From the NCBI GenBank assembly GCA_016215105.1, contig JACRLJ010000128.1:1-34021 (forward strand): a stretch of DNA of 34,021 bases. Direction: 5' to 3'. Positions 4,752 through 8,579 of this stretch are shown piece after piece. The position numbers and the translations under genes are program-made. This stretch comes from Candidatus Hydrogenedentota bacterium (GTDB lineage: Bacteria > Hydrogenedentota > Hydrogenedentia > Hydrogenedentales > SLHB01). The notes under the pieces are model-generated. The model saw nothing but the letters and a program-made list of their open reading frames with translations, ran no database searches and had not been told where the DNA came from. How positions within the stretch are numbered: position 1 is the stretch's first letter; each line of letters opens with the position of its first letter.

Positions 4752-4856
4752 GAGTAGTTGATGTAGAGCTTGCGTCGTTTGAGAGGGTTTGGGCGTTCCG
4801 GTTGCCGCGCTCGGCGAGCGCGGCAGTACTCGGGGGCGCCGTTGGAGGACATACCG

Positions 4857-5054
4857 ATGACACGGTGGGAATACTGGACCGTTACATTAAAGCCGACGGG
4901 TTTCTGGACCGCAAAGCTGGAAGATTCGGAAGTTACGGCCATCCTGAATAACGCAGGCCGCGAGGGCTGGGAATTGGCCGCGGCGCCCGCGCTCACGATG
5001 AGTTATGGCCAGACCGGTGGTGTATTGCTCCTGTTCAAGCGACCAAGCCATTAA
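4857..5054 (+). CDS. DUF4177-like small protein
   Basis: 66 aa from ATG 4857 (GGAGG RBS 9 nt upstream): MTRWEYWTVTLKPTGFWTAKLEDSEVTAILNNAGREGWELAAAPALTMSYGQTGGVLLLFKRP. The WEY...GWELV...LLFKR pattern is characteristic of DUF4177. The longer ORF from 4770 is probably a spurious extension. Confidence 0.55.
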   Translation: MTRWEYWTVTLKPTGFWTAKLEDSEVTAILNNAGREGWELAAAPALTMSYGQTGGVLLLFKRPSH

Positions 5055-5185: not shown

Positions 5186-5377
5186 GTGGCTGAACGGAAA
5201 ACATTTCTATTGCGGTTGCCGCCGGACTTGTACGACGACCTGAATCGTTGGGCCGCGGATGAATTGCGGAGTCTCAACGCGCAGATCGAGTATGTACTGC
5301 GGGAGGCTGCGCGCAAACGGAAAGGGGAACGGGAGGCGGATGCGCCGCCTGCGGGGACGGGGGATGGGGACACATGA
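5186..5377 (+). CDS. Arc/MetJ-type ribbon-helix-helix DNA-binding protein
   Basis: 63 aa with GTG start. [40 protein letters not shown] matches the Arc-like RHH DNA-binding domain consensus (FLLRLP.ELH..L...A...GRSLNAEI...L). Confidence 0.5.
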
Positions 5378-5387
5378 AAGGAGCATT

Positions 5388-5948
5388 GCCGTGGATGGGA
5401 CGTATTTTGAATGCAGGTTGGACTCGAAGACGCGCGTGATATCAATCCTCATTTTGCTAAGCGTGATCGCGGGGACGGTCGCTACGGTCGTGGTGTTGAT
5501 TCTTGTGGCCATGAGCCTAAGTACCGATCAGCGCTTGGCGCGACTCGTGTTGTTTGCCGCTGCCGGATTCGCGGTAATCGAGTTTTTGGGTTTGGCCGCG
5601 GTAGCGACGTTCGCTCCGAAAGGGTACTGGGTGGGGCCGGATGGTATCACGGTTGTTCGACGCAATGGACGGAAACTCGTCTTGGCGAAGGGGGAACTCG
5701 CATCTGCCGAGGAAGCCGAGCCGGAAGTACTGAAGCGGAGTACGCGATCCTGTGGCGGCAGTTTCTTTGGCCACTGGGGGCGGTTCAAGTGTTCCGCGCT
5801 CGGCAGCTTTCGTGGATACTGGGGAAATCGAGAGTCGTTGGTGTTGGTTCGCGACACCAGCGGGCGGCCCATCGTGTTGTCTCCAGAGTCCCGCGGGTAT
5901 GTTGTCGAGTGCGTAAACGAGTTGCTGGGCAAAGGGCGGCGGCGTTGA
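5388..5948 (+). CDS. Membrane protein, two TM helices plus bacterial PH (bPH_2/YdbS-like) domain
   Basis: GTG start 6 nt after a GGAG RBS, 11 nt after the RHH gene stop. Two hydrophobic helices (ISILILLSVIAGTVATVVVLILVAM; LVLFAAAGFAVIEFLGLAAVATFA) are followed by GYWVGPDGITVVRRNGRKLVLAKGEL, typical of membrane-flanked PH domains. Confidence 0.5.
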   Translation, partial: AVDGTYFECRLDSKTRVISILILLSVIAGTVATVVVLILVAMSLSTDQRLARLVLFAAAGFAVIEFLGLAAVATFAPKGYWVGPDGITVVRRNGRKLVLAKGELASAEEAEPEVLKRSTRSCGGSFFGHWGRFKCSALGSFRGYWGNRESLVLVRDTSGRPIVLSPESRGYVVECVNELLGKGRRR

Positions 5949-6051
5949 GTGGCGTGACACGAGAAGCGTATGCGATTGGGGATGGTGTGCGCGCTCGGGC
6001 GGTCTGCGCTCGTCGAGCGTAGACGTACTAAGGCGGACGTGGCGGAGATGT

Positions 6052-6152
6052 GGTCTCCTGCGTCCCTTTGGGACTGACCGGCAGGTGATCGGTGATCCGG
6101 GGGTTCTCTTCGGTCACCCCCGGCTACTCTCCTGGCGTCCCTTCGGGACTTT
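6052..6152. repeat. Structured ~100-bp repeat, copy 1 (three hairpins with UUCG-type loops)
   Basis: ctcctgcgtccctttgggactgac ... ccgggggt-tctcttcggtc-acccccgg ... ctcctggcgtcccttcgggactttgac. About 85% identical to copy 2 at 6927-7027, in direct orientation. Confidence 0.8.
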
Positions 6153-6267
6153 GACAGGTTGCAGGCGCCGTGGGATGCGGTTGGTATGCAGTTGGGAAGG
6201 AGTATGGAGAAGGTTTCAGAAGACAGGGGAATTGTTGAAGGATGAGTTGCAGGCATTTAACCCGTAG

Positions 6268-6899
6268 TTGAAGGTGCGCGGTATGTTTCAACGGACGTGG
6301 GAAGCATTGAAAGATGAGTCGAAGGTCGTCCTGTTGGTCGGGGCGGGATTTGCCGTGTCGCTTCTGGTTGGGATGGTGACGGCTCGATGGGGTCCTCGTC
6401 TCGAAACGAGCACATTGAGATGGTATTCGGCCGGTTCCGAGACGGGGTACGCGAGGGACAGCTTGGGGCCTTGGCGAGCGCAGCGCTTGTTCTCTTTGCT
6501 ATAAACCTATTCGCACTGATCGCGTGGACCGTGGCCTGTGCGTTCATCGTTCCTCTAGCGTCCTTGTTCTTCGGCGCCTGGGCCGTTGGAATTGACCTTC
6601 CCGGCTTGCACGGGTCATCGTTCCTCTCCGTGTTCCTACTTCTGATTGTGGTTGGCGTTGAGTGGGTTACGATTGTCCTCAGCGCGGCAGCCGGAACGAG
6701 TATCGGTCTTGCGACGATTTGTCCCGCGCGCGTCGGCTGCTCGTCGCGATGGCCTGCCTTCAAGCGCGCGTCTACGCAGGCCATGAATTTGTATGTGGTG
6801 ATCCTGGCCATTCTGGCGATTCAGACGGTGGTGGAAATCCTCTATGTGAGGCAGGTCCTGTTGATGGGCGGCACGGGCGTGCCCTTGGCGCCGTATTGA
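6268..6899 (+). CDS. Putative polytopic membrane protein (possible DUF95/SpoIIM-like), apparent frameshift between ORFs 6268-6504 and 6387-6899
   Basis: Two overlapping same-strand ORFs in different frames, both with hydrophobic helices (VVLLVGAGFAVSLLVGMV; LASAALVLFAINLFALIAWTVACAFIVPLASLFFGAWAVG...). The family assignment is weak. Confidence 0.3.
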
Positions 6900-6926
6900 A
6901 CGGCCAAGGGCGTCGTATAGTGTGGA

Positions 6927-7027
6927 GGTCTCCTGCGTCCCCTCGGGACTGACAGGTGGGTGGCTGGCGATCCGGGGGTTCCCTTCGGTCACCTCCGGCT
7001 ACTCTTCTGGCGTCCCTTCGGGACTTG
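6927..7027. repeat. Structured ~100-bp repeat, copy 2
   Basis: ggtctcctgcgtcccctcgggactgac ... ccgggggttcccttcggtcacctccgg ... cttctggcgtcccttcgggacttga. A direct repeat of copy 1. Stem positions vary while pairing is retained (G-U in the middle hairpin). Confidence 0.8.
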
Positions 7028-7039
7028 AATGGACGAGAC

Positions 7040-8285
7040 GGATCAGGGATGACTCGCCAGTAGAGAACGGGAGCTTAGTGCTCCCCAGTTTCAGGTCGGC
7101 AGTGCCGCCAATGCGCTAAAGGCAAGTTCCAGGGGGCATCTGGCGATCTGCAGGAAGTAATTGCCGATACGAGCCAGATAGATGACGCGTTCCTCTCGTG
7201 TGTTTGCCTTCATGAGCCGGGCGATGTCGAGGGTTTCGGCCGCGGCTCCGAAGGCGCATAGGAATACATAGGCCAGCGCCAGGATATAGAAGTGCCGGTC
7301 GTGTCGCTGAGGCTGGGATAGACGCACATGATCCATTCCAAGTCCCCAGTTGCGGTTCTTGGGGTCTCGGAACATGGCTTCGGTCCACATGCGACGCTTA
7401 TAGACGCGTACCACCTCTGCCGGGGGCTCAACGTCAAGATTGGTAACCAGATACCACGCTTCGTCGGCCTCGCGATCAAAGGTGGTCACCACTCGAATGG
7501 GGCCCATTGTTGCTCATCCATCGTACCCCAGCCCCAGTCCCTGGGTGTCCATCCGCGGCGTATCCCCAGTTCTTTGAGGCTACCCATGTGCTTTTCGACC
7601 GCGACCTGATGAATATGGGATAAACGCTGGACAAAGTACCATCCCCGGTTTGCGATATCGCTTAACCACCGCACGTTGCCGAAGCCCCGATCCGACACGA
7701 TAACCGGGGTAACTCCGACAGGGCACATCTCTGCGAGCATCTCCAGCGCTCGGTGCTCGCCGGCAATCATGGCGCCTTCCTGATCCCCCTGGTGTTCACT
7801 CTTGCGGATAGTCACACATAAGAAGGGAAGAGCGCGGCCATCGCGGGGCAGAGAAAACACCAACTGTTGAAACGGGGCCATATCCGTCCAATCCGCCAAA
7901 ACAATCGTGTGTCCAGTCGTTGGCCGAAAGAACGAAAACAACGCTGCGCTTATGGCTGAGGTCTCAAATTGGTCATTGCGCAACAACCGCCAAACTCGCT
8001 TGATACAGTGTTTGGCTGCGACTGCGCCAGCCATAGCACGTCCTAACGCCAGAACGCCAACCCCCCTCATCTGAAGCGCCGCGCTCACCACATCGGCCAA
8101 GGTTTTGCGCCGCGACTGCCGCATGGACTGGACATGCGTTTCCAACCACGTCAAAATGTTGCTCGGGTCGTACATGGATTTCTCCTCCTTGGATGGCTGC
8201 TAGTGGCAACTTCAGCCTATTTTAGACGAGAACCGCCGTCTACGACCCACTGCTATACAGACTTAGGGAGACTGGGGATCACTGA
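7040..8285 (-). mobile_element. IS4-family insertion sequence (boundaries approximate)
   Basis: Contains the transposase ORFs 7091-8175. Possible imperfect terminal repeats near ~7069-7084 (tgctccccagtttcag) and ~8268-8283 (reverse complement tgatccccagtctccc). Exact ends not resolved by eye. Confidence 0.55.
7091..8175 (-). pseudogene. IS4-family DDE transposase, interrupted by a frameshift (ORFs 7486-8175 and 7091-7507)
   Basis: N-terminal ORF carries D (LADWTD) and D (VSDRGFGN). C-terminal ORF carries YKRRMWTEAMFRDPK, an exact Y-(2)-R-(3)-E-(6)-K IS4 signature. The two frames overlap at 7486-7507 around a GGGGCCCC run. Confidence 0.7.
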
Positions 8286-8579
8286 GATGCAGAGCAGGCG
8301 AGGTTTACGCGTTCCGGGAGGCCGTGCTACCATCTTGCCGGTTATGGGGCGTGCGACTAGATTGCGGGGTGCTTTCATGAGGGCGATAATCGCTAAAAGG
8401 GTGAAAGGCAATTCGTGGGGGAGAACTGTAGGCGACAGCCCCGAAGGACTTCTGCGGAACAGCAACATAGGGGTTCCTGCGCCCCCTATGCAGCTTGAGA
8501 AAGGGAGTCTCTGTCCAGTTTCGCCGGCTTTATTCCGCGGTTTTACATTGCAGCGTCGCCGTCTGATGCGCTAACTTCG

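Follow-up and report, generated by a model that had tools for sequence, protein, structure and literature searches.

Small Y1/HUH enzymes and the hairpin repeats that accompany them have been described in bacteria in several configurations. In the REP/REPtron systems, short extragenic hairpins are dispersed between genes as solo units, inverted doublets and clusters, each REP being a single palindrome with a GT[AG]G foot, and a low-copy gene for a class 2 enzyme with a Y...NP motif, the RAYT (TnpA_REP), lies between inverted copies of the same hairpins (Nunvar 2010, PMC2817692; Messing 2012, PMC3479197; Di Nocera 2013, PMC3733652). In the TIRtrons, the Y1 genes of the TIRYTs lie between long palindrome-bearing, 'double palindromic' terminal inverted repeats that likewise have dispersed copies (Di Nocera 2013), whereas the IS200/IS605 elements and their gene-less derivatives (PATEs) carry near-identical small hairpins on one strand at the ends of a short unit. 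TnpA_Y1 subclass 1.2 was reported as low-copy, without IS200-type ends, with the entry 'REP: no' and mostly from Cyanobacteria and Bacteroidetes (Quentin, Siguier, Chandler and Fichant 2018, PMC6006769), and we found no published follow-up on it in the literature. Acido-Lenti-1 (RF01687) has been in Rfam since 2010 with the type 'Gene; sRNA' and without a known function; its describers graded it 'probably RNA' and noted only an occasional closeness to group II introns (Weinberg 2010, PMC2864571), a 2026 preprint describes it as still little understood, and in genome papers it continues to be annotated as a possible regulator. No published link between Acido-Lenti-1 and any enzyme was found in the literature. 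Here we report that a three-hairpin block containing the Acido-Lenti-1 motif, present as two direct repeats in a 34,021-bp contig (JACRLJ010000128.1, hereinafter the window) of a Candidatus Hydrogenedentes metagenome-assembled genome (MAG), forms in other genomes both inverted arms around a gene for a subclass 1.2 Y1/HUH protein of about 145 amino acids.

This joins two orphans with a precise geometry, namely Acido-Lenti-1, to which no function had been assigned, and the subclass 1.2 Y1 proteins, for which no DNA partner was known. With a probability of roughly 70%, we read the window repeats themselves as orphan ('solo') copies of a three-hairpin REP-like DNA element whose inverted arms flank a subclass 1.2 Y1 gene elsewhere. 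For the window this is a deflationary reading, with ordinary intergenic copies of a dispersed element and no special cassette; the interest lies in the family-level link.

Two direct copies of a three-hairpin block with the Acido-Lenti-1 motif

A repeat search of the window returned two ungapped direct repeats of 100 nt each, 88% identical and 875 bp apart from start to start (Table 1). The first-pass annotation of this DNA had recognized them as direct three-hairpin repeats of ~85% identity, and the anatomy that it proposed stands: each copy runs from an inner small hairpin (HP2a) across a spacer to a larger hairpin with an 8-bp stem and an 11-nt loop (HP1, 6097-6123 in the first copy), and from there across a linker to a near-identical outer small hairpin (HP2a'). 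The 19-mer CTGGCGTCCCTTCGGGACT has four sites in the window with up to three mismatches, as against 0 in 100 dinucleotide shuffles, and these are the two 'a' and the two 'a-prime' hairpins. The copies differ at 12 positions, 11 of them unpaired and one in a stem, where a C>T change at 6119 yields a G.T pair (hypergeometric P = 0.03); pairing is therefore preserved between them, as the first-pass annotation had also noted, with G-U in the middle stem. There are no compensatory double changes between the two window copies, the longest perfect stretch that they have in common is 20 bp, and 7 of the 12 differences fall in the spacer, which suggests two independent old copies rather than one recent event.

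The small hairpins are predicted (ViennaRNA) to fold as 5-bp stems with 3-nt loops (UUU, CUC and UUC). A cUUCGg tetraloop, which had been proposed earlier for these loops, is not supported by this fold or by the variation of the loop across the family (TTC, TGC, TAC, TCC, GTT and GAT). The 55-nt core has the same predicted two-hairpin fold both as DNA and as RNA. Stretches of 101-121 nt are only modestly more stable than their shuffles (z -1.2 to -2.9), and the real support for the structure is covariation, not folding energy. HP2 is followed on its 3' side by TTTGACAGG in copy 1 and by TTGAATGG in copy 2. An intrinsic terminator was rejected, since there is no T-run after the hairpins and neither a terminator-like site nor a promoter consensus is predicted at either copy.

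The last ~50 nt of the block (HP1-linker-HP2) constitute the Acido-Lenti-1 motif. All parts of the RF01687 consensus architecture are found in the window, viz., the 8-bp hairpin, CUA with the linker, and the 5-bp hairpin CGUxCC-UUC-GGxACU; the Rfam model takes in two of the three hairpins. A permissive Rfam scan matched both copies to RF01687, copy 1 at 32.7 bits (E 2.4e-5) and copy 2 at 21.3 bits (E 0.031); the alignment of copy 1, at 6097-6150, extends over model positions 1-46 and forms every pair. Weak matches to Cupriavidus-1, mir-763 and Twister-sister (E >= 1) were disregarded. A covariance model made from 20 loci of other genomes, with the window left out (R1), matched copy 1 at 6097-6151 (50.9 bits, E 3e-10) and copy 2 at 6972-7026 (42.2 bits, E 2.8e-8), with a partial HP2 match at 6051-6074 and another partial match at 6931-6949, and gave no further matches over the rest of the 34-kb contig. 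Upon rescanning eight of the R1 source loci with RF01687, all eight passed its gathering score. By its architecture and by an independent model the window element groups with Acido-Lenti-1, yet it misses the Rfam score cut-off. The described range of the family is Acidobacteria and Lentisphaerae, outside of which the host phylum of the window, Hydrogenedentes, lies.

Recurrence, covariation and higher-order arrangements

A two-hairpin pattern of 26 specified bases recovered 45 loci from species-representative genomes, where the estimated chance expectation is ~0.01; these span Planctomycetota, Verrucomicrobiota, Acidobacteriota, Bacteroidota, Desulfobacterota, Lentisphaerota and Cloacimonadota, contain 123 R1 units, and include four loci on separate contigs of one Pedosphaera MAG. 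The unit in these loci comprises an HP1 stem CCNNNNNN/NNNNNNGG, CT, an 8-12-nt linker and GCGTCCC-NNN-GGGACT. The 8-bp stem of HP1 differs in nearly every lineage, and after it only a C and a T are conserved (in 89 and 94 of 102 distinct units, respectively), with the next two positions varying. An inner HP2 with the same stem lies 18-29 nt upstream of HP1 in 78 of 97 units with a perfect outer HP2, mostly at 22-24 nt, a range into which the 22-nt spacer of the window falls. The arrangement of three hairpins is genuine and is found again across many genomes.

The covariation check on collected homologues that the first-pass annotation had advised came out strongly in two sets. Among the pattern loci, 96.5% of cells are paired, versus 77% in shuffles and 25-61% in slid controls, and compensatory changes are seen in all eight HP1 pairs. 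An independent set chosen by the Y1 protein has 98.8% of cells paired, with slid controls at 28-50%, and compensatory changes affect 12 of its 13 pairs, among them all five of HP2.

Beyond single units, direct tandem arrays with a 66-69-nt period and up to ~25 units are common in the family. The longest, on the Desulfonema magnum chromosome (NZ_CP061800.1; L007 5646-7064), has ~25 head-to-tail units at a period of 68-69 nt; two differently scoring sub-variants are interspersed in it, and it is very long for a supposed small RNA. A CRISPR-like array, as the regular spacing of pattern matches (66-90 nt) might suggest, was rejected, since within an array the 'spacers' are conserved, and the covarying HP1 is part of them. 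Gene-less inverted doublets, with a minus-strand arm followed ~60-100 nt later by a plus-strand arm, are found at L012 3196-3486, L018 2198-2488, L036 4089-4423, L042 4512-4739 and L033 652-847, and look like Y1 modules minus their gene, reminiscent of REPINs.

Other arrangements were also observed. Mini-arrays of HP2 alone (GCGTCCC-NNN-GGGACT), with a period of 24-31 nt and without HP1, occur at L005 1103-1301, L013 6944-7145 and 6166-6370, and L021 15-177; those of L013 prolong both arms of a Y1 module. In an Acidobacteriota MAG (JBEQUE010000120.1; L042 4500-5700), two composite blocks of ~250 bp, each of two inverted units and one direct three-hairpin arm, bracket a ~600-bp pair of small minus-strand genes, which when read by eye resemble a putative ParE/RelE-like toxin and its antitoxin; the ~70 nt preceding the second block recur after it, a hint that the end of the neighbouring gene has been duplicated. 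The pattern match in a Solirubrobacterales MAG (L016 2444-2568) has a different structure, in which GAGCGTCCCGGAGGGACTCCCAT pairs with a nearby ACTCCGGGACGTTCGG, and is probably an unrelated repeat.

Inverted arms around subclass 1.2 Y1 genes

In 8 of the 45 pattern loci, a full-length Y1 gene lies within ~360 nt of the motif, mostly within ~110 nt, and tblastn located fragments of such genes in two more. In one of these loci (L015), for instance, the 154-codon open reading frame (ORF) between inverted HP2 hairpins codes for a Y1_Tnp protein. Six of the associated proteins pass the NCBIfam IS200 model NF033573 (66-82 bits, cut-off 55), whereas scores against the NCBIfam RAYT model NF047646 reach only 23-26 bits (cut-off 80), so that these are not class 2 RAYTs; Pfam Y1_Tnp is matched at 87-90 bits. 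The closest solved structure is the IS608 TnpA. The Y1 proteins are 144-154 amino acids long, their invariant residues give DH.H, WQ and YI..Q..HH, and they bear the published TnpA_Y1 subclass 1.2 signature of DH[VIMC]H, WQ and YIxNQxxHH, with which they agree further in the forms DH[IV]H and YIKNQKEHH, a length of ~148 residues and a conserved C-terminal tail of ~30 residues (PMC6006769).

The association also holds in the reverse direction. Eighty metagenomic loci were picked by alignment of the Y1 protein alone and then scanned with R1: a match lies within 200 nt of the Y1 gene in 63 of them, and on both sides of it in 37. Of the 49 loci with a match on the left, 44 have the nearest one on the minus strand, and of the 51 with a match on the right, 44 have the nearest one on the plus strand; the median distances of these nearest matches are 53 nt from the start codon and 67 nt past the stop, respectively. 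R1 matches number 3.1 per kb up to 250 nt from the Y1 gene, as against 0.15 per kb beyond that. At its gathering score, RF01687 itself recognizes two oppositely oriented arms in L046, L048, L053, L055, L063, L065, L067, L076, L082 and L017. Read outward from the Y1 gene, each arm consists of an inner HP2, a spacer, HP1 followed by CTA, a linker and an outer HP2, with the inner HP2 of the left arm only a few nucleotides from the Y1 start codon. This is the same order as hairpin a, middle hairpin and hairpin a' in the window, and the window block therefore corresponds to exactly one arm of the module.

The hairpins vary in sequence between modules. The inner HP2 need not match the outer one of its arm: in L059 and L078 they differ (GCCCC versus GTCCC), and since the other arm shows the mirrored difference, both arms evolve in concert. 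All four hairpins read GTCCG...CGGAC in L056 and L079, and GCCCT...AGGGC in L111.

Comparison with the described systems

With the REP/REPtron systems the element shares the short extragenic hairpins dispersed as solo units, inverted doublets and clusters, and, in its relatives, the low-copy Y1/HUH gene between inverted copies of the same hairpins. It differs in that its enzyme is of the IS200-like class 1 (YIxNQxxHH), its unit is a three-hairpin block rather than a single palindrome, and long direct tandem arrays are common. The GT[AG]G foot is also wanting: the window has CTAC, which is GTAG on the minus strand, and GTAG is not conserved in the family. In sum, the element works like a REP/REPtron, yet it fails two of the features that define one, the GTAG foot and the class 2 RAYT.

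The published subclass 1.2 differs from the present set both in the absence of REPs, since here arms are found at 63 of 80 genes, and in its range, the hosts here including Acidobacteriota, Planctomycetota and Verrucomicrobiota. As in the IS200/IS605 ends and PATEs, two near-identical small hairpins stand on one strand at the ends of a short unit, and the enzyme that accompanies them scores above the cut-off for IS200 TnpA and has IS608 TnpA as its best solved-structure match. In contrast to these elements, whose ends are direct, the arms around the gene are inverted here and a direct pair of HP2 exists only within one arm; moreover, tnpB is absent, and the copy number of the gene is low according to the literature. 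The TIRtrons are alike in having Y1 genes between long palindrome-bearing inverted repeats with dispersed copies; the TIRYTs are, however, another protein class with another repeat, being mostly of subclass 2.1 with a GGGGWSAS motif (PMC6006769).

A REP-like DNA element, a structured RNA or a cassette

On the reading that we favour, the complete element comprises an inner HP2 (GTCCC-NNN-GGGAC), a ~23-nt spacer, HP1, CT(A), a ~9-nt linker and an outer HP2, and a pair of these blocks, inverted and with the outer HP2 outermost, encloses the IS200-like HUH/Y1 gene of ~145 codons in a REPtron-like layout in bacteria of seven or more other phyla. The data show this anatomy, the family membership, the covariation and the close two-way association with the Y1 gene, its geometry included. 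By analogy with the TnpA of IS608 and ISDra2 and with the TnpA_REP of Escherichia coli, the hairpins would extrude in single-stranded DNA, such as the lagging-strand template, where a Y1 enzyme encoded elsewhere in the genome may bind them and cut and rejoin the adjacent DNA. Arms thereby copied or moved into intergenic DNA could give rise to solo arms, gene-less inverted doublets and tandem arrays. We infer a single-stranded DNA recognition, an enzymatic mobilization and a cognate Y1 gene for the genome of the window, in which two solo arms occupy successive intergenic regions, oriented as their flanking genes. It is because these regions are adjacent that the arms 'bracket' a frameshifted spoIIM-like gene. 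The two arms probably undergo passive co-transcription as parts of 3' untranslated regions, and their divergence suggests that they are old and have been diverging independently.

Several results weigh against this reading. Both window copies lie under the RF01687 gathering score of 37 bits, because of the 11-nt HP1 loop and, in copy 2, the G.T pair, and an exact search of the metagenome collection with GGCTACTCTYCTGGCGTCCCTTCGGGACT (the linker plus HP2 of the window) gave 0 matches. No R1 match was found in 17 of the 80 Y1 loci, the published survey lists subclass 1.2 without REP (PMC6006769), and the GTAG foot of the canonical REP is replaced in the family by a conserved CT alone. No Y1 gene was detected in the 34-kb contig by tblastn; a Y1 profile search, with no Hydrogenedentes entry among the 120 matches listed of at least 8000 candidates, carries no weight either way for a cognate enzyme in this phylum. 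Further, each copy follows a plus-strand gene and has the same orientation as that gene, the one stem change of copy 2 still allows a G.U pair when read from the plus strand, and a crude survey of orientation downstream of genes counted 21 cases in the same sense as against 10 in the opposite one, a weak bias that comes from ORF-based calls, which are unreliable in G+C-rich loci (21 of 55 clusters lie 'inside' probably spurious ORFs).

The last three observations would also suit a functional structured RNA, be it a small RNA or an element of the 3' untranslated region that uses its plus-strand hairpins to stabilize the upstream mRNA or to pause or terminate transcription, and the strong covariation and the grade 'probably RNA' given to Acido-Lenti-1 in 2010 speak for it as well. 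Nonetheless, covariation is expected equally of a hairpin that is read as single-stranded DNA, and G.T pairs are not in excess of A.C (13 versus 14 in one set, 8 versus 11 in the other, 21 versus 25 combined). We favour a DNA-level element in view of this lack of a G.T excess, the mirror-image arms that place the motif on both strands of Y1 genes, the inverted doublets and long tandem arrays, and the absence of a predicted promoter, a terminator or a T-tract after HP2, and regard a structured RNA as the primary identity of the repeats as unlikely. REPs of E. coli serve also as mRNA 3' stabilizers, and the two readings are compatible rather than mutually exclusive; given the co-orientation, the G.U-compatible change and the weak sense bias, a side role at the RNA level is therefore possible. 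Between the two natures offered in the first pass, a structured RNA or a REP/MITE-like repeat, the Y1 arms and the arrays thus favour the REP-like one and disfavour a dedicated small RNA or riboregulator.

The first-pass annotation had further supposed that the repeats, structured and recombinogenic, could delimit a small cassette; it might be integron-like, or a composite unit of left-end- and right-end-like arms with the spoIIM-like gene as passenger. The layout invites this, with two direct arms 875 bp apart enclosing one small gene and ending in the same HP2 on the same strand, like the left and right ends of IS200/IS605, and a similar layout in L042 around what, from sequence reading only, is a putative toxin-antitoxin pair. 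It was not upheld. The closest homologues of the spoIIM-like protein (56% identity in L126; also L127-L129) are in other operons with no R1 match at E <= 1. No integrase was found among the ORFs scanned in the contig, nor, as noted, a Y1 gene; integron attC sites were rejected, since the GTTRRRY core site is absent from both strands of both copies. The shared perfect run of 20 bp is short, the diverged spacers suggest independent old copies, and the arms around Y1 genes are inverted instead of direct, all of which leaves a cassette very improbable. Least tenable is a duplication confined to this site and lineage, or a palindrome-rich stretch that arose by chance and means nothing beyond it, such as an ordinary intrinsic terminator duplicated with the gene. 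The presence of only two copies in the 34-kb contig and the modest thermodynamic z-scores might have spoken for it, but it is already refuted by the same architecture in 45 and 63 loci of many phyla, by the absence of the pattern from shuffles and by the lack of a T-run after the hairpins.

An extension of the REP-like reading is that each arm is a minimal transposable unit of the subclass 1.2 Y1 enzyme, with its direct pair of HP2 acting as the left and right ends do in IS200/IS605. One period (HP2-spacer-HP1-linker), excised or copied by the enzyme in single-stranded form, would be reinserted beside another HP2. Tandem arrays with a 66-69-nt period and up to ~25 units would thereby be explained, as would the doublets and the solo arms; direct arms, such as those around the spoIIM-like gene or the putative toxin-antitoxin pair of L042, could then occasionally mobilize the intervening DNA. 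We put this forward as a tentative proposal, more doubtful than not.

If the REP-like reading of the repeats is true, what is now annotated as Acido-Lenti-1 should be taken for a REP-like DNA repeat, the REP/RAYT principle reaches IS200-like class 1 enzymes and many non-proteobacterial phyla, and oligonucleotides of the arm provide a concrete substrate for the enzyme.

The repeats in their contig setting

Table 1. Positions of the repeat copies, their hairpins and two neighbouring features in the window
Feature	Position	Strand	Description
Repeat copy 1	6052-6151	+	Complete three-hairpin arm: HP2, 22-nt spacer, HP1, CTAC + linker, HP2
Copy 1 HP2a (inner small hairpin)	6062-6074	+	GTCCC TTT GGGAC, CTGC just 5'
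Copy 1 spacer	6075-6096	+	22 nt between HP2a and HP1
Copy 1 HP1	6097-6123	+	Stem CCGGGGGT/ACCCCCGG, loop of 11 nt
Copy 1 CTAC + linker	6124-6136	+	CTAC at 6124-6127, GTAG on the minus strand
Copy 1 HP2a' (outer small hairpin)	6137-6149	+	GTCCC TTC GGGAC; CTGGC 5', T 3'
Repeat copy 2	6927-7026	+	Layout of copy 1 shifted by +875
Copy 2 HP2a	6937-6949	+	
Copy 2 HP1	6972-6998	+	One G.T pair
Copy 2 HP2a'	7012-7024	+	
Frameshifted spoIIM-like membrane-protein gene (context only)	6268-6899	+	ORFs 6268-6504 and 6387-6899; likely start ATG 6283
IS4-family insertion sequence (context only)	7074-8286	-	Transposase in two ORFs, 8175-7486 and 7507-7091

With hisS, two tRNAs and various enzymes, the contig has a chromosomal character. 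Both copies are intergenic: the first is in the gap 5948-6268, between an ORF at 5259-5948, for which a family search gave no match, and the spoIIM-like gene, and the second in the gap 6899-7074, between the stop of that gene and the IS4-family element. The frameshift that had been noticed in the spoIIM-like gene is real, because intact homologues of 215-221 amino acids, some of which carry PF01944, run across the junction of both ORFs and cover 98% of the repaired protein; it could reflect a pseudogene or an assembly error of the MAG. An empty-site comparison with L126, the closest relative, yielded no pre-insertion site, the upstream neighbour there being not homologous to that of the window. 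Copy 2 had been thought to abut the insertion sequence directly; 47 nt separate the two, since the inverted repeat of the IS4 element begins at 7074. The terminal inverted repeats of this element are imperfect, of 19 bp, and lie at 7074-7092 and 8268-8286, with no clear target-site duplication recognizable by eye, and its two transposase ORFs match positions 3-159 and 209-314 of NF033591. Upstream of copy 1, ORFs of 63 and 94 codons (5186-5377 and 4770-5054) show, respectively, a weak match to the transcription factor TprA below the curated cut-off and a sub-threshold match to the Sp36 family.

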